From Saprospiraceae bacterium (GTDB lineage Bacteria > Bacteroidota > Bacteroidia > Chitinophagales > Saprospiraceae), in NCBI GenBank assembly GCA_016706365.1, contig JADJJU010000011.1:77654-141653 (forward strand): a DNA stretch of 64,000 bases, in the 5' to 3' direction. Positions 469 to 26,246 of this stretch are shown one piece after another. The position numbers and the translations under genes were made by a program. Each line of letters starts with the position of its first letter. Position 1 is the stretch's first letter. The notes beneath the pieces were generated by a model. That model did not search any database and was not told the DNA's origin. It saw only the letters and a program-made list of their open reading frames with translations.

Positions 469-735
469 AACAGCCGCTTAGGCAATATAATGTTAAAAAC
501 GAAAAAATAGGAAAAAAATTTAGCTTCTGCAAAGAAGGGAAGAATCAGTGAGAAGAAAAGAGAAGCTAAGAACATTGGGAAGGAATTGAACATGAGTTAG
601 AAGGGACGGAGGAGCGAAAGCGAAGTGCGCACCCCCCGGGAAATCTAAGACCTTAGGCTGTTGGCTTTTAGCTATTGGCGAACAGCCGAAGGCTTCTAGC
701 TTCTGGCCTCTGGCCTGTGGCTGAACAGCCAGTTT
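469..735. repeat. mosaic low-complexity intergenic block (AACAGCC-punctuated)
   Basis: AACAGCC at 469, 681 and 724; purine-rich stuttered words at about 490-640; hairpin GGCTGTT(656-662)/AACAGCC(681-687); words TTGGCTTTTAGCTATTGGC and GCTTCTAGCTTCTGGCCTCTGGCC are shared with other loci. Confidence 0.8.
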
Positions 736-956
736 GAGTGAAGCGTTGGGGTTGGTATCTTCTCCGACTCAAACAGACTCACACCCAAACAAACTCACAC
801 TCTACACCCCAGACTCAGCCGCGGGCTCCGCACGCACATCACCTCCGAAAAAAATTGACTGCGAAGCAGACAATTTTTTTCGGAGACATCACTTCTTCGT
901 GGCGTAGCCGGGAAGAAACATCACCTTTCAAGCCGTAGGCGTGGAAAGACATCACC
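724..956 (+). repeat. copy A of a conserved ~235-nt intergenic module (AACAGCCAG, G/T arm, C/A-rich words, ACATCAC hairpin array 836-956)
   Basis: Aligns by eye along its whole length with 3542-3774; ACATCAC(C) at 836, 886, 918 and 949. Confidence 0.85.
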
Positions 957-3451: not shown

Positions 3452-3548
3452 AACAGCTGCAACCTTGTTGCTGGTTGCTGGTTGCTGGTTGCTGGTTGCT
3501 GGTGAACAGCCGCTTCTAGCTCTGGCTTTTGGCTTTTGGCAAACAGCC
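3452..3548. repeat. AACAGCC-punctuated module including heptanucleotide microsatellite (GTTGCTG)x5 at 3467-3501
   Basis: AACAGCT at 3452, AACAGCC at 3505 and 3542; five exact tandem GTTGCTG units; words CTTCTAGCTCTGGCTTTTGGCTTTTGGC. Confidence 0.85.
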
Positions 3549-3774
3549 AGTGTGGGTGAAACGCTTGGTGTTTGTATCTTCTCCAACTCAAACTGACTCA
3601 CACCCATACAAACTCACGCTCTACACCCTGAACTCAATCGGGGGCTCCGCACGCACATCACCTCAGCAATAAATTGACTGCAAAGCAGACAATTTATTGC
3701 TGAGACATCACTTCTTCGCGGCGTAGCCATGAAGAAACATCACCTTTCCAGCCGCAGGTGCAGAAAGACATCAC
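3542..3774 (+). repeat. copy B of the ~235-nt intergenic module (ACATCAC hairpin array 3655-3774)
   Basis: Collinear with 724-956; ACATCAC(C) at 3655, 3705, 3737 and 3768. Confidence 0.85.
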
Positions 3775-8249: not shown

Positions 8250-8441
8250 CTGGTTGCTGGTTGCTGGTTGAACAGCTAATTGGTGACTTGGTGAATTGGC
8301 GAATCAAACAGCCAATGAAACAGCCAATTACCAGCCTCGAAAACTACGAACTTAGGAGTTTTGCCCTGCATAGTCATGTGAGTGTGAGTGTGAGTGTCGT
8401 AGCTGGAAGCTACTGGAAGCATGGATGTGTGAGAAACAGCC
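8250..8441. repeat. AACAGCC-punctuated stuttered-word block
   Basis: (GGTTGCT)n at 8252-8270, AACAGCT at 8271, AACAGCC at 8307, 8319 and 8435; stutters TTGGTGACTTGGTGAATTGGCG, GTGAGTGTGAGTGTGAGTGT, GCTGGAAGCTACTGGAAGC. Confidence 0.8.
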
Positions 8442-8479
8442 GGGAAAAATTTTGAGTTATGAGATGCAATACGTTTCTG

Positions 8480-8760
8480 GAATTGAGCCTTTTCTGTGAT
8501 GGATTTAGCCCTGAAAGGGCGCCATATACCAGCGAGGCGGCGCAGCCCCTCGCGAAAAAGCCGCGAGATTACGCTTCAAACCACCCATCGGCAAAAAGCA
8601 GTGAAGCGTTTTTTCATTTAATTGTTAACAGCCGGTGTATAGAAGATCCAGCAGTGGCCAGACCTGACGCTCGCGGCAGGGCCGGGCGACAGCGAGCTGC
8701 GAAACGTAGCGCAGCCCGCAGGGATGACCGCCCAAAATATTGCCTTGAGAGACTATGGAA
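8480..8760 (+). other. GC-rich mosaic of short perfect hairpins (possible structured RNA or REP-like cluster)
   Basis: GCCC-tgaaa-GGGC 8508-8520; CGAGG/CCTCG 8533-8552; CTCGCG/CGCGAG 8549-8567; ACGCTTCA/TGAAGCGT 8571-8609 followed by a T-run; GCTCGC/GCGAGC 8669-8697; GCTGCG/CGCAGC 8696-8715. Confidence 0.6.
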
Positions 8761-8845: not shown

Positions 8846-9781
8846 ATGCTTAACTTCATCCGGAGGTTCAAACTGACATACATGATTTACAACCTTTTCC
8901 AAAGGCGTAAATTGAAGCATAATGAAAAATTGTACAAATTACTGGGGCTAAAAAAGCGGTATTATTCTCCGATTTCAAGTGCCGACTTTGCTAACTGTGA
9001 CCCTTCGCGTATAAATAAAATTGTACAAACGCTTCCAGTGGAGTCGTCCTCACTCTATAAGGATCTGGATGCAGAATCACAGGAAAGCATTCGGAAATTT
9101 GATAAGGAAGGATATGCGGTAATCAAGAACTATCTTGACAAGGATACTGTATCTGCTGCAAATGCTGAAATCGCAGAATTGCTGAAAAGCGGAAAACTGA
9201 AATTCCGGTATAAGAACAAGATCATGTTTGCCATCCATCAATCAGAGCTCTTATATAAGATAGGGCAGGATGTAAGGCTGCTGGAGCTTCTGAATTCTTT
9301 GGCCGGTGATGAGATGAAGCTATTCCAAAGTATCAACTTCATCATGGGAAGCGAGCAAAAAACGCACTCTGACAGCATTCATATGACAACATATCCCTTA
9401 GGCGGACTGCTGGGAGTATGGATTGCACTCGATGATGTTGATGGGGACAATGGTCCATTACAATATTACCCTGGCAGTCATAAACTTCCATACTATCTGA
9501 ATTCGGATTATGATAATTCCGGCAATGCATTTATGATTGGGAATAAAGACTATTCGGCATATGAGGCGATGATTGCTAAAAAACTGGAGGATCAGAAAGA
9601 GAACAAAAAAATATTCACAGCAAAGAAGGGAGATTTGTTGATTTGGCATGCAAATCTGTTCCACGGAGGAGAGCCCCATACCAATAAATCAAAGACCAGA
9701 AGAAGTATGGTGTTTCATTATTATTCGGCAAACAGGATCTGTTATCATGAGATTTCGCAGAGGCCGGCGCTGATGAGTTGA
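8846..9781 (+). CDS. phytanoyl-CoA dioxygenase (PhyH) family Fe(II)/2-oxoglutarate oxygenase
   Basis: 311 aa; HSDSIHMTT ... GPLQYYPGSHKLP ... LLIWHANLFHGG pattern. Confidence 0.8.
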   Translation: MLNFIRRFKLTYMIYNLFQRRKLKHNEKLYKLLGLKKRYYSPISSADFANCDPSRINKIVQTLPVESSSLYKDLDAESQESIRKFDKEGYAVIKNYLDKDTVSAANAEIAELLKSGKLKFRYKNKIMFAIHQSELLYKIGQDVRLLELLNSLAGDEMKLFQSINFIMGSEQKTHSDSIHMTTYPLGGLLGVWIALDDVDGDNGPLQYYPGSHKLPYYLNSDYDNSGNAFMIGNKDYSAYEAMIAKKLEDQKENKKIFTAKKGDLLIWHANLFHGGEPHTNKSKTRRSMVFHYYSANRICYHEISQRPALMS

Positions 9782-9960
9782 GCAGCCGGTAAACAGCCTC
9801 GTTAAAGCGGTAAAGCGTTGAATCGGAAACAGCCGAAAAGAAGCTGCAAGCTACAAGATGCAAGCTGCAAGAAAACAGCCGGAACAGCATTGTTAAAGAT
9901 TTGAGTAGGGAGCTGCTGTAGGGGCCAATCAAGATTCGTCATATCTCTGCAGGAACAGCC
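9781..9960. repeat. AACAGCC-punctuated stuttered-word block
   Basis: AGCAGCC at 9781; AACAGCC at 9792, 9828, 9874 and 9954; AACAGCA at 9883; stutters GTTAAAGCGGTAAAGCG and AAGCTGCAAGCTACAAGATGCAAGCTGCAAG. Confidence 0.8.
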
Positions 9961-18570: not shown

Positions 18571-18951
18571 GGTGATGTCCCGGCTTCGCTGCGCTATGCC
18601 GGGGTGATGTCTTTTCACAGCTTCGCTGTTAAAAGGTGATGTTTTTTTGTTTTCTGCAGCTTCGCTTAGAAAACAAAAAGGTGATGTGCAAGCGGAGCTT
18701 GCGGATGAGTAGTGTGTCTTGTGCATGAGTCTGTTTGAGAGTTGAGTCTGTGCGTGTTTTGACAAGTACCAAACTCCTCACTCGAACAAACCCACACTCA
18801 AAACAATGAACCCAACCGCGAGTCCGCGAGATCGCACATCACCTTTGTTCTATTGAGGCGTAGCCGAAAATAGAATAAAGACATCACTTCTTCGCAGCGC
18901 AGCTGTGAAGAAACATCACCTTGCAAGCCGTAGGCGCAGCAAGACATCACC
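18571..18951. repeat. head-to-head inverted pair of ACATCAC hairpin-array modules
   Basis: GGTGATGT at 18571, 18603, 18635 and 18680 (reverse orientation) faces ACATCAC(C) at 18836, 18881, 18913 and 18944; G/T-rich arm 18705-18760 opposite C/A-rich arm 18768-18815. Confidence 0.85.
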
Positions 18952-19296
18952 TCGTTTCGACCATATCACCGGAAATAGTTGCAATTATTTGAAGTCGAAG
19001 CTGTGTAAGTTTGAGTACACGCATTACTGAATGTTACTTCGAGCAAGTGGGAGAAAACAGCCAGTTTAATGGCTACACAATTTTTTAAAATCTGGTATTT
19101 GGATAAAATGCAAGTGCAAATAAATTGACAATGTTAACAGTGGAGTTTGAGATGCGTGTGCTTTTGATTGCTAATAAATTAGCAAAACCAAAGAGCCAGT
19201 GAACAAGAGTAGGTTCAATAATTCACTATATTTGACAGTAGGAAATATATTAATCAACTTATTAAATTTTCTGGTAAATACTCTTTAATAAATCCC

Positions 19297-22523: not shown

Positions 22524-22761
22524 GAGAATAGTTGAAATTCATCTGTATTAAGAGTTGCATAACGATATCAATCAAAAAACAATTTTCACTATTCAAGTTG
22601 AAAATTTGTCACTCATCAAAATTTCTACTTCGACTTTAATTTTTTATCTCAATCTTTGAGAAGAATAATCAGAGTTTGCATCGTTATTCATTTGCAGAGG
22701 CGTTCTGCAAGGCGGATTCCGAAAAGCCATAAGAGTAGGAAAAATATTTAAATAACTAAAA

Positions 22762-23169: not shown

Positions 23170-23275
23170 TCTGAACAGCCGTTGAATCGGTTAATCGGTT
23201 AAGTGTATAAGCGAAGTGTGAAGAAACAGCCGCTATTGGCTTTTGGCTGTTAGCTTTTGGCTAACAGCCGGAGCT
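23170..23275. repeat. AACAGCC-punctuated module with perfect 10-bp hairpin
   Basis: AACAGCC at 23174, 23225 and 23263; GGCTGTTAGC(23245-23254)-ttttg-GCTAACAGCC(23260-23269); stutter GAATCGGTTAATCGGTTAAG. Confidence 0.85.
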
Positions 23276-23487: not shown

Positions 23488-23581
23488 AATTTGAAATGAA
23501 CCGGCATTCTCCAGGTTTAGATTCAATTCCAATTAATGCTGGCTTTATTGACTTTCGAGTTATATGTGAATTACTGTTTTG

Positions 23582-24183
23582 TCCTCACCATTCACTTTTC
23601 AAATTTCACATTTCAATTTTCACATCTTACTTCTAACCATTTACCATTTACTATTCACCATTTACTTTTCTCATCTCACATTTCACATTTGACATCTCAC
23701 CCTTCTCTTCCTGCCATTTACTATTCCCTTTTCACTTTTCACTTTTTTTCCTCTTCTAACCATTCACCATTTACTATTCACCATTTACTTTTCTCATCTC
23801 ACATTTCACATTTGACATCTCACCCTTCTCTTCTTACCATTTACTATTCACCATTTACTATTCACTTTTCAATTTTCACATTTCACTTTTCACGTCTTAC
23901 TTCTAACCATTCACCATTTACTATTCACCATTTACTATTCTCATCTCACATTTCACATTTGACATCTCACACTTCTCTTCTTACCATTTACTATTCACCA
24001 TTTACTATTCACTTTTCACTTTTCACATTTCACTTTTCACTTCTTACTTCTAACCATTCACTATTCACCATTCACTATTCACCATTTACTTTTCTCATCT
24101 CACATTTCACATTTGACATCTCACCCTTCTCTTCCTGCCATTTACTATTCCCTTTTCACTTTTCACTTTTTTCTCCCTCCTTT
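23582..24183 (+). repeat. G-depleted tandem repeat (4 units; unit starts 23631, 23754, 23901 and 24048; periods 123, 147 and 147 nt)
   Basis: Only 7 G counted in 602 nt on the + strand; built from words TCACTTTTCAC, CCATTTACTATTCAC, CATCTCACATTTCACATTTGACATCTCAC. Confidence 0.9.
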
Positions 24184-24296
24184 GGAAAAATAAATTCCAA
24201 ATCGTACCTTCCCGTTTTATACCCGCCAAGATCTATGAACTGCTCAACCCGAGCCTGTCTTCTATTTATTGATATCACAAAAATTCAATTCAGCCC

Positions 24297-26246
24297 ATGC
24301 AAAAGTTCTTGCTCCTACTGTCCTTGACATTTTTAACACTCATCCTGAATGCTCAAAGTAATGAAGCATATTTCATGTCACATTCCACGCTGACACCAGA
24401 CGGACAAACGATTATTTTTGATTATGACAATGATCTTTGGAAGGTCAGCACCGCGGGTGGCTCTGCCTCCAGATTGACTGCGATGGATGGAAATGAACAG
24501 TATCCCCGTGTCTCACCTGATGGGAAATGGCTTGCATTTTCGGGCAATCAATATGGGGGGACCGATGTATATATTATGCCACTTAATGGGGGCGATATCA
24601 AACAATTAACTTATCATGAAGCCTTTGATCACGTGGATAGCTGGTCCTGGGATTCAAAAAATATTTACTTCACATCCAATCGTTACAATCGTCAGTCAGG
24701 TTATAAAGTTTCCATTGATGGGGGAACTCCTGTGAGGTTATTTGCCAATTATTTCAATACTGTCCATTCCATTGTTGAGCATCCCAATGGTGAAATATTC
24801 TTCAATGAAACCTGGGAAAGCAAGTCATCAGCTAACCGCAAAAGATACAAGGGAGCATATAATCCAGATTTACAATCATATAACCCCAAAACAAAAGAAT
24901 TTAAAGTTTACACTTCATGGAACGGCAAAGATTTCTGGCCGACTTTTGACAAGCAGGGCAAAATTTATTTTGTATCGGATGAGGCAAATGGGGAATACAA
25001 TCTTTATGAACTGGAAGGGAAAAATAAAAAACAACTTAGCAAATTCAATACCTCCATCAGCAGGCCACAAGTAAGTGCTAATGGAGAAAAAATAGTATTC
25101 GAAAAGGATTACCAGTTATGGGTATATGATGTGAAGTCTAAGGATAGCAAAAAAGTGAATATCAATATTTTCAACAATAGTGTTCTTACCAAAAGCCAGG
25201 ATTTTGATGTTAAAGGGAAAATTGAAAGCTTTGATGTTTCCCCTGATGGGAAAAAAATGGCTTTCGTGTCAAGAGGTAAACTTTTTGCTTCTGATATAAA
25301 AGGTCAATTTGTCAATCTTTTATCCACCGGTACAGGACGGGTGCTGGAAGTTAACTGGATGGCAGACAATAAAACAATGATCTATGGTAAAACCAATGAA
25401 AATGGCTATGCTAATTATTTCACCATTGCTGCTGATGGATCCTCAGCTGAAAAACAAATCACCAATGTAAGTCGTAACGATCGTGATCTCAGTCTCAATC
25501 ATGACAAAAGTATGGGAGTATATATCAGCGGTCGCGATGAAGTGAGAACAATTGACCTCAAATCGCTGACGACTTCATTAATTGTAAAGGACGAAATCTG
25601 GGGATTTCAAAATCCGGCTCCGGGCTTTTCACCGGACGGAGAGTATGTTGTTTTCACAGTTCGCCGCAATTTTGAACAAGATATTGTAGTACATCATTTG
25701 AAATCAAAAACCACTACTAATCTTACAAAAACTGCCATCACAGAAACCAATCCTGTTTGGTCTCCGGATGGAAAATGGATTTATTTTATTTCCGACCGGC
25801 TTGGCCCGGGATATCCATATGGGCTTAGAGATGCACATATCTATCGCATACCCCTTGAGAAACATGAGGATCCCTATAAGAGCGACAAGTATGCAGAACT
25901 TTTTGCAGCGGACTCTACTAAAAAAGATGACGTAAAAAAAGAGGATAAACAGGATGAAAAGAAAGACGATAAGAAAAGCGACAAGAAAGATGACAAGAAA
26001 GATGACAAGAAAGATGAGAAAAAAGATTCAATAAAAATTGTAACCCCTCTCAGTATTAATCCGGAAGGATTGACACGCTTGGTGGAGCAGGTGGGGCCTA
26101 CTTTTGGAACCCAAAGCAATTTATTTCTGTCAAAGAAAGATGATAAGATTACTATGATTTTTGCATCTAATCATAGTGAAGGTAAATCCAATTGGTGGAA
26201 GACAACCTATGAACCATTCACTCCTCCCAAGACAGAAAAAAATTGA
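24297..26246 (+). CDS. tricorn-protease-like S41 peptidase, N-terminal beta-propeller part (frameshifted gene)
   Basis: Signal peptide; repeated SPDGKWLAF/SPDGKKMAF PD40-type blades; Lys/Asp-rich insert; ends 4 nt after the A7 run at 26236-26242. Confidence 0.8.
   Translation: MQKFLLLLSLTFLTLILNAQSNEAYFMSHSTLTPDGQTIIFDYDNDLWKVSTAGGSASRLTAMDGNEQYPRVSPDGKWLAFSGNQYGGTDVYIMPLNGGDIKQLTYHEAFDHVDSWSWDSKNIYFTSNRYNRQSGYKVSIDGGTPVRLFANYFNTVHSIVEHPNGEIFFNETWESKSSANRKRYKGAYNPDLQSYNPKTKEFKVYTSWNGKDFWPTFDKQGKIYFVSDEANGEYNLYELEGKNKKQLSKFNTSISRPQVSANGEKIVFEKDYQLWVYDVKSKDSKKVNINIFNNSVLTKSQDFDVKGKIESFDVSPDGKKMAFVSRGKLFASDIKGQFVNLLSTGTGRVLEVNWMADNKTMIYGKTNENGYANYFTIAADGSSAEKQITNVSRNDRDLSLNHDKSMGVYISGRDEVRTIDLKSLTTSLIVKDEIWGFQNPAPGFSPDGEYVVFTVRRNFEQDIVVHHLKSKTTTNLTKTAITETNPVWSPDGKWIYFISDRLGPGYPYGLRDAHIYRIPLEKHEDPYKSDKYAELFAADSTKKDDVKKEDKQDEKKDDKKSDKKDDKKDDKKDEKKDSIKIVTPLSINPEGLTRLVEQVGPTFGTQSNLFLSKKDDKITMIFASNHSEGKSNWWKTTYEPFTPPKTEKN

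Follow-up and report, generated by a model that had tools for sequence, protein, structure and literature searches.

Dispersed intergenic arrays of ACATCAC-linked hairpins in Saprospiraceae

What kind of element is made of a fixed heptamer that alternates with hairpins of changing sequence? The question is raised by a 64,000-nt stretch of Saprospiraceae DNA (hereafter the window; GenBank assembly GCA_016706365.1, contig JADJJU010000011.1, positions 77,654 to 141,653), which encodes type IX secretion system (T9SS) sorting domains and SusC-type receptors, marks of a Bacteroidota genome. A first-pass annotation of its sequence had pointed to four arrays, here called A to D, in which four copies of ACATCAC are separated by hairpins, and had proposed that structure is under selection in them. 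Here we show that the ACATCAC arrays form a multi-copy, dispersed and strictly intergenic element family of Saprospiraceae (Bacteroidota), and the three-hairpin element has apparently not been described before.

The array unit and its family

All four arrays were recovered with four heptamers each, three on the plus strand and array D on the minus strand (Table 1). The conserved unit measures approximately 116–121 nt and runs in the order hairpin 0, (A/C)CATCAC, hairpin 1, ACATCAC, hairpin 2, ACATCAC, hairpin 3, ACATCAC. From one heptamer start to the next, arrays A and B measure 50/32/31 nt, array C 45/32/31 and array D 45/32/32; array B shares 87% identity with array A taken together with its leader. 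The window contains 21 copies of ACATCAC vs. 7.8 ± 3.0 expected, a count reached by none of 100 shuffles. As 16 of the 21 copies lie within the arrays, the rest of the window shows no enrichment of the motif.

The family was followed by a pattern scan of one genome per species and by a metagenome scan, and the range and copy numbers given here are lower bounds. The pattern scan found the same elements on many contigs of the Saprospiraceae metagenome-assembled genome (MAG) JALHRR01, and at least about 20 further copies came from the metagenome scan. A covariance model built from 27 distinct seed copies recognises at least 39 members: 4 in the window, where it matches the known arrays only, at least 14 in this MAG, and the others on metagenome contigs. 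In several cases two or three copies share one 8-kb locus. Compared in pairs, the seed copies are 45–95% identical (median 66%), and no two of them are the same; the family is therefore more than the few recent duplicates that the first-pass annotation had allowed for.

No array matched Rfam 15 at the gathering threshold or at E ≤ 10, and permissive matches were chance-level hits to small nucleolar RNAs and microRNAs. A blastn search of the PLSDB plasmids with the arrays gave no match, and the pattern scan of viral contigs gave chance matches only, with no family member among the 119 loci listed; the one viral locus that passed the hairpin filter among the matches listed was a coding repeat. 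In the literature, covered here without claim to exhaustiveness, the heptamer gave only microRNA and primer noise, and a search for Saprospiraceae repeats or small RNAs (sRNAs) returned nothing relevant. The earlier view that the arrays belong to no described family thus stands for Rfam and the literature searched.

Fold, modules and folded strand

In all 27 seed copies the minimum free energy (MFE) fold consists of three hairpins, with the heptamers left unpaired as 7-nt linkers, so that each interval does form a hairpin as had been claimed for the window. In a MAFFT alignment, on which the structure was written by hand from the sequences, 91.5% of the stem cells are paired and both-sided (compensatory) changes are found in 27 of the 33 pairs (163 cells). 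None of 500 shuffles reached any of the five covariation measures, and pairing dropped to 43–52% when the 3′ partners were slid by 1–3 columns as a control. These results support selection on structure rather than on sequence.

Both comparisons from which structural selection had first been proposed hold. The stem 844–857/871–884 of array A and its counterpart 3663–3676/3690–3703 in array B differ at three positions per arm, all of them compensated (C-G to A-T, A-T to C-G and A-T to T-A), and CTTTC/GAAAG at 925–929/944–948 corresponds to CTTGC/GCAAG at 18920–18924/18939–18943. For copy A the fold has a z-score of −6.1 as RNA and −7.3 as DNA, and the reverse complement scores −3.2 as RNA. Throughout, the stems diverge yet remain paired, while the heptamers, the loop classes (cGNAg triloops, CTTGYN) and the purine-rich internal loops stay constant.

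Hairpin 1 is 38 or 43 nt long and occurs in at least six stem types (for example TTTTTGTTTTC, TTTGTTCYATT, TCCGMAATAAATTG, TTTATATTTTC, TTGYGATTATT and TTGCAACTTTT), every one of them paired and each carrying a GNA-triloop tip of 3–4 bp above a purine-rich internal loop. Hairpin 3 combines CTTKC..GMAAG and an AA/GCA internal loop with a 3-bp tip under a GNA loop; the tip covaries (GCC/GGC, GGC/GCC, ACC/GGT, GCA/TGC), and the N of the loop is most often T (11 copies), followed by C (5), A (4) and G (3). The first-pass annotation had described a GNA-triloop tip for every interval. It had read GCGAAGC at 861–867 correctly, and the tip holds for hairpin 3 (23 of 23 copies) and hairpin 1 (17 of 19). 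It is not universal, since hairpin 2 in most relatives has a 10-bp stem with a CTTGYN hexaloop, and the type seen in the window has a shorter stem and a GNA-tipped mini-hairpin.

Copies are mosaic. An identical hairpin-2 sequence was found with differing hairpin-1 types, and in locus L132 hairpin 2 is absent, missing exactly between two heptamers; modules are therefore probably exchanged in register between copies. A kink-turn reading of the internal loops was rejected, as the strand lengths do not fit. A likeness of ACAUCACCUCC to the 16S 3′ end (anti-Shine-Dalgarno) was set aside, because CUCC occurs only in the long hairpin-1 type, within the stem.

At stem positions G·T exceeds A·C, with 16 vs. 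6 cases in the ungapped register and 29 vs. 14 in the model alignment (binomial p = 0.016, from an alignment that leans towards pairs and copies that are not independent). The ACATCAC strand is therefore the folded strand, and the data support a fold of this strand in single-stranded form as opposed to a double-stranded DNA structure. Folding energy does not separate RNA from single-stranded DNA. Extraordinarily stable DNA mini-hairpins have the consensus GCGNAGC/GCGNNAGC; as RNA, such hairpins are far weaker (PMC13037366). Hairpin 0, which directly precedes the first heptamer, reads GCGAAGC where the 5′ flank is of class III and GCGCTAGC/GCGCCAGC/GCGTCAGC (GCGYYAGC) where it is of class II (flank classes are given below). 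The sequences thus conform to the Hirao rule for DNA mini-hairpins (GCGNAGC or GCGNNAGC; cGNAg/cGNNAg, closed by C-G), which reinforces the point on DNA mini-hairpin stability made in the first-pass annotation.

Flanks, genomic setting and related repeats

Hairpin 0, the leaders, the polar AACAGCC modules, the mosaic copies and a sister family all go beyond what had been noticed before. Class I flanks, found at all four window copies, consist of an approximately 90-nt CA-rich, G-poor leader with repeated ACTCA and a covarying 6-bp hairpin 0. In class II, AACAGCCRGGAAGAAGYTGCC..CTTATTTTTTGCGCYAG is followed by CCATCAC, and class III comprises varied sequence ending in CGCGAAGC. On the 3′ side, a conserved tail of approximately 35 nt, YTCGNNTCGACNANATCNCCGGAAATAGYTGCAA, follows a subset of the arrays; it is absent from other copies, and the 3′ boundary of the element is therefore also modular.

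Further upstream, AACAGCC punctuates stretches of 25–45 nt made of short tandem heptads (GGCCTCT, GTTGCTG, AAGCTGC, GTTAAAGC and others). Within 300 nt upstream of 34 arrays we counted 62 sense vs. 1 antisense copies of AACAGCC; downstream the counts are 3 vs. 2. One or more sense copies precede 22 of these 34 arrays. The window holds 29 copies vs. 6.1 expected, clustered in intergenic regions and 23 of them on the plus strand, and the family loci hold 152 vs. about 23 expected, nearly all upstream of arrays and co-oriented with them. AACAGCC is also present away from ACATCAC arrays.

All copies are intergenic and their neighbours are unrelated housekeeping genes (mutS, topA, mnmG, threonine dehydratase, acrB, P-type ATPase and others); no transposase gene adjoins any of approximately 35 copies. 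The loci could not be taken as syntenic orthologues, since tblastn of the window flanking proteins against all family loci gave no shared neighbours. The median distance from the 3′ end of an array to the next gene is approximately 60 nt, and the 5′ side always measures at least 140 nt. Arrays at one locus share their orientation in L081 (3 of 3) and in L039, L042, L077, L121 and L174 (2 of 2 each). L196 and L090 also contain the head-to-head pair formed by D and C, but with other genes on either side. The divergent pair of L196 lies between convergent genes, so that the arrays there are not 5′ untranslated regions (UTRs), and the window pair lies between divergent genes, so that these are not 3′ UTRs. 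Being neither throughout, the arrays are self-contained units. A terminator-like hairpin with a T-run (AGAGCAACTCC..GGGGTTGCTTT TTT) stands at 424–449 on the plus strand of the window, 3′ of a small plus-strand open reading frame (ORF). It lies upstream of the AACAGCC module and array A, and array A is thus probably not part of that upstream transcript.

One orthologous pair only was found, in L081 and L146, where both arrays lie upstream of mutS (97% protein identity). Both sites are filled and the element ends are undefined. The arrays are approximately 86% identical, like the adjoining intergenic DNA (approximately 86–90%); of their 17 differences, four make up two compensated pairs, three break pairing and one falls in a heptamer. 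Upstream of the AACAGCC nearest to the array, L081:1337–1790 and L146:230–690 cannot be aligned, and the heptad/AACAGCC modules are therefore hypervariable, with fast turnover, while the array persists. A block of approximately 45 nt, ACATTTCTTGCTGCCATTTACGAAAAACTTGCAAATT, was seen at L081:2060–2110, in L146 (100% conserved between these two loci) and at L039:2590–2640, where it lies upstream of a second array. It is another repeated intergenic module and a putative promoter.

A sister family follows the same hairpin-array grammar with RYGTCAC linkers (ATGTCAC, GCGTCAC, ACGTCAC) and hairpins of a simpler, GNA-capped form. Both families are present in the Saprospiraceae MAG, whereas the window has no member of the sister family, and all linkers within one array are of a single type. 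That the grammar is kept with other linkers, which share the core TCAC(C), argues that the linker is a recognised element and not filler.

Other repeats were also noted. The GTAG-headed palindrome GTAGGGGCGATTCATGAATCGCCCCTAC occurs upstream of arrays in the related loci L051, L121 and L039, and GTAGCTGGAAGCTAC, with a GGA triloop and preceded by GT-rich hexamer repeats, occurs at 8399–8413 of the window and in L081. The GTAG-headed palindromes look like classic repetitive extragenic palindromic (REP) sequences, separate from the ACATCAC arrays, and would be the more obvious substrate of a REP-associated tyrosine transposase (RAYT). At 23591–24170 the window has a 580-nt tract of approximately 83 degenerate TTCACTT heptamers with higher-order periods of 14, 70 and 147 nt, which overlaps a mechanically called ORF (23536–24327). 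The sole Rfam match in the window is a DUF805b motif (RF02914) at 22709–22741 on the plus strand, with 44.6 bits vs. a gathering threshold of 35.6.

Table 1. Coordinates of the arrays, their flanking modules and related features (window positions unless a locus is named)
Feature	Position	Strand	Details
Array A	836–955	+	Heptamers 836–842, 886–892, 918–924, 949–955; covariance-model score 111 bits
Array A hairpin 1	843–885	+	15-bp outer stem 843–857/871–885; tip CTGC-GAA-GCAG 859–869
Array A hairpin 2	893–917	+	Stem 893–898/912–917; tip 900–910, GTA loop
Array A hairpin 3	925–948	+	CTTTC/GAAAG stem; tip GCC-GTA-GGC 932–940
Array B	3655–3774	+	Heptamers 3655–3661, 3705–3711, 3737–3743, 3768–3774
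Array B hairpins	3662–3704, 3712–3736, 3744–3767	+	
Array C	18836–18950	+	Heptamers starting 18836, 18881, 18913, 18944
Array C hairpins	18843–18880, 18888–18912, 18920–18943	+	First: 12-bp stem, tip GGC-GTA-GCC
Array D	18572–18687	-	Heptamers 18681–18687, 18636–18642, 18604–18610, 18572–18578; head-to-head with C
Array D hairpins	18643–18680, 18611–18635, 18579–18603	-	
Class I leader of array A	746–835	+	CA-rich, G-poor, ACTCA repeats; conserved with 3565–3654
Hairpin 0 of array A	821–835	+	GCGGGC-TCC-GCACGC
Class I leader of array B	3565–3654	+	
D–C inter-array region	18688–18835		D leader on minus strand, C leader on plus strand
Hairpin 0 of array D	18688–18702	-	GCAAGC-TCC-GCTTGC
Conserved block of array C leader	within 18688–18835	+	CAAACCCACACTCAAAAC..GAACCCAA
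Array A upstream module	656–730	+	AACAGCC 681–687, 724–730; inverted copy 656–662
Array A upstream tandem heptads	691–721	+	GGCCTCT-type
Array B upstream module	3467–3548	+	GTTGCTG x5.3 3467–3503; TGGCTTT x2.6 3523–3540
Array B upstream AACAGCC	3505–3511, 3542–3548	+	
AACAGCC sites of the window	469–475, 656–730, 3505–3548, 8307–8633, 9792–9960, 19056, 23174–23269, 27551, 61558		
Conserved-tail sites	957–995, 18951–18990; L081 (x3), L153, L146, L213, L147		Window sites follow array A and array C
Orthologous pair	L081:1801–1933, L146:704–836		Both upstream of mutS
Sister family members	L042:3553–3656, L077:1285–1391, L174:225–313 (degenerate)	-	Low-scoring model matches, Saprospiraceae MAG

Possible roles and known systems

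Judging from sequence and predicted folds, we lean tentatively, and with less than even confidence, towards an RNA module in which four ACAUCAC sites are presented in single-stranded form to a sequence-specific binder. Transcription would run in the ACAUCAC sense and would often include a CA-rich leader or an AACAGCC-repeat module on the 5′ side; the three rigid hairpins would act as spacers that keep the four heptamers single-stranded and exposed, and the RNA would serve as a multivalent platform for a single-strand binder. The candidate binder would be an RNA-binding protein, titrated or assembled in the style of the CsrB/RsmZ/CrcZ decoys, or alternatively a nuclease that processes the RNA at the heptamers. 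Recombination between copies would exchange modules in register, and we propose it as the cause of their mosaic make-up. We prefer RNA because of the transcription-unit-like polarity (AACAGCC, the CA-rich leader and the unequal distances to genes on the 3′ and 5′ sides), because three different hairpins with conserved loops follow a fixed order, and because of the strand asymmetry together with the absence of any mobility signature. As the divergent pair lies in differing gene contexts and the neighbours are unrelated, the element would not be a UTR of one gene class.

Several observations weigh against an RNA platform. Upstream of 33 copies no consistent site was found for the Bacteroidetes −33 TTG/−7 TAnnTTTG promoter, the sole recurrence being a weak TGGGTTTG in the three D-type copies; neither a sigma-70-like promoter nor an intrinsic terminator was found at the arrays, and no U-tract follows the hairpins. 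The three classes of 5′ flank are unrelated to each other. Mean RNA MFE across copies is −37.4 kcal/mol on the plus strand and −37.3 kcal/mol on the minus strand, and the loop classes, by the cGNAg and GCGNNAGC rules, would favour DNA. At the orthologous pair three disruptions are uncompensated and the array evolves approximately as fast as the flanking intergenic DNA. The density (4 copies per 64 kb; 2–3 per 8 kb) looks REP/BOX-like and too high for a classical sRNA family. Lastly, the six-frame translation of the window contains no RNP1-type RNA recognition motif (RRM), and no candidate for the binding protein was found.

The loop rules would suit the main rival reading, somewhat less likely but serious, of a REP-like element of single-stranded DNA, whose hairpins would arise wherever the ACATCAC strand is exposed as a single strand, such as at the replication fork. 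Heptamer and hairpin would then be the recognition or cleavage site of an HUH enzyme (RAYT or IS200/IS605-type) or of another structure-specific enzyme, by which the arrays would be dispersed and, at the heptamers, recombined. With this agree the C-G-closed GNA triloops of hairpins 1 and 3 and of some hairpin-2 copies, the match of hairpin 0 to GCGNAGC/GCGNNAGC, whose RNA counterparts are far less stable (PMC13037366), and the DNA fold of copy A. High local density, dispersal beside unrelated housekeeping genes and shared orientation within loci fit as well, and mosaic hairpin combinations and the L132 deletion would make the heptamers natural crossover points; nor was a promoter or terminator found at the arrays. 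Yet the HUH/RAYT link drawn in the first-pass annotation gained no positive evidence: transposases are missing beside the copies, there is neither a GTAG head nor an inverted doublet, and the arrays are direct, in fixed 1-2-3 order. The seed copies show no master-copy burst pattern, a separate classic GTAG palindrome in related genomes is the expected RAYT substrate, no member was met among the listed viral loci or in the plasmids, and the 5′ polarity with leader and AACAGCC modules is left unexplained.

It is unlikely that the arrays are purely structural RNA punctuation at the ends of transcription units, that is, a barrier to 3′ exonucleases, a site of pausing or Rho-dependent termination, or an insulator, as reviewed for REP, SMAG and SPRITE (PMC3184786). 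The CA-rich leader, which is C-rich, G-poor and unstructured, would then resemble a Rho utilization (rut) site followed by pause hairpins, and the heptamers would owe their conservation solely to a role in linking or processing. In many loci the array 3′ end does lie 0–100 nt from a convergent gene end, and AACAGCC modules start directly after stop codons, as at 9792 behind a gene ending at 9781. Arrays face an oppositely oriented downstream gene in 22 of 35 cases and follow a co-oriented upstream gene in 18 of 31, but these biases are not significant. Array A stands behind a separate terminator-like hairpin (424–449), no U-tract follows the hairpins, and a simple barrier needs no four invariant heptamers, conserved loop classes or fixed hairpin order. 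Most improbable of all are double-stranded DNA sites, with ACATCAC as an iteron-like protein site and the palindromes incidental or cruciform-extruding. Four direct 7-mers, the last three spaced by approximately 31–32 bp or about three helical turns, would suit such sites; but the two lengths of hairpin 1 set the first spacing to 45 or 50 bp, so that phasing is not conserved. The massive compensatory change in the spacers would be left unexplained, and the excess of G·T over A·C indicates one folded strand.

Wastewater and aquatic systems harbour abundant Saprospiraceae, whose non-coding genome has been little studied; this motif, clean and strongly covarying, with a single-stranded heptamer that does not vary and without a database match, offers a ready handle. 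If the element acts as RNA, it points to a new sequence-specific RNA-binding factor in a phylum without classical RNA chaperones. To our knowledge, neither CsrA nor Hfq is present in Bacteroidota. Acting as single-stranded DNA, the element would instead be a new hairpin-substrate architecture, built of direct arrays around a 7-mer core with loops of the DNA mini-hairpin type, and would extend the REP/RAYT paradigm. Either way, the polar composite of hypervariable AACAGCC heptads upstream and conserved arrays suggests a system of modular intergenic repeats. As a long shot, the arrays might be the Bacteroidota counterpart of CsrB/RsmZ/CrcZ, i.e., decoy or scaffold RNAs for a global single-strand RNA-binding protein, with the RYGUCAC family serving a paralogous binder and the AACAGCC heptad arrays being further binding modules of the same transcripts.

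Among known systems, REP/BIME/SMAG elements with their RAYT (Y1 HUH) enzymes share a fixed short oligonucleotide beside a hairpin and hairpins kept across copies. REP palindromes, however, measure 20–40 nt and carry a GTAG head, found in 0 of 27 aligned copies here, where each hairpin is preceded by ACATCAC(C) and followed by (G/A)ACATCAC. They alternate as inverted doublets or BIMEs, whereas our three hairpins follow directly as 1-2-3 on one strand, and the D/C head-to-head pairs are whole arrays of differing sequence, not inverted doublets. REP sequences form clouds around a master copy; the ACATCAC arrays are deeply diverged and only the 7-mer is constant. A REP system also includes a cognate RAYT (Y1 transposase) gene that the repeats themselves flank; among the neighbouring genes examined, no such gene stands beside any copy. 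Miniature inverted-repeat transposable elements (MITEs) have terminal inverted repeats, but this unit starts and ends with a direct heptamer and its 3′ flanks are not conserved. CRISPR arrays, usually accompanied by cas genes, combine direct repeats of 23–47 nt with unique spacers, in contrast to a 7-nt repeat, four per array, between homologous hairpins of fixed order.

Pneumococcal BOX elements (boxA-boxB(n)-boxC) and SPRITE are likewise modular, mosaic, stably folding, placed beside unrelated genes and suspected of a role at the RNA level; BOX modules, however, conserve approximately 45–60 nt of sequence, whereas in the ACATCAC family, with no sequence relation to BOX, sequence is free and the fold and the 7-mer are kept. 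In CsrB/RsmZ (GGA) and CrcZ (A-rich), a repeated short motif is likewise exposed single-stranded on or between hairpins, as in 27 of 27 seed folds here, but those are discrete transcripts with their own promoter and terminator, neither of which was found at the arrays, and the copy number here appears much higher. FopS/GibS are multicopy paralogous Bacteroides sRNAs whose single-stranded regions are bound by the RRM protein RbpB (PMC11697453); they measure 65–70 nt, with one 5′ R1 seed, a terminator and canonical promoters, are confined to Bacteroidaceae and are in Rfam, whereas the arrays differ from them in architecture and have no Rfam match. On the DNA side, d(GCGNAGC)/d(GCGNNAGC) mini-hairpins occur at the phage G4 origin, at ssiA and at promoters of the N4 virion RNA polymerase (vRNAP), with a rule for loop and closing pair identical to that of the arrays; the G4 origin, too, consists of three hairpins that are read in single-stranded DNA (PMC13037366). 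These phage and plasmid mini-hairpins are single replicon sites, while the ACATCAC family has dozens of copies on chromosomes and a linker heptamer that does not vary. On the features tested, the ACATCAC element is thus not a REP/RAYT, MITE, CRISPR, FopS or Rfam family; it combines a REP/BOX-like lifestyle with a CsrB-like layout.

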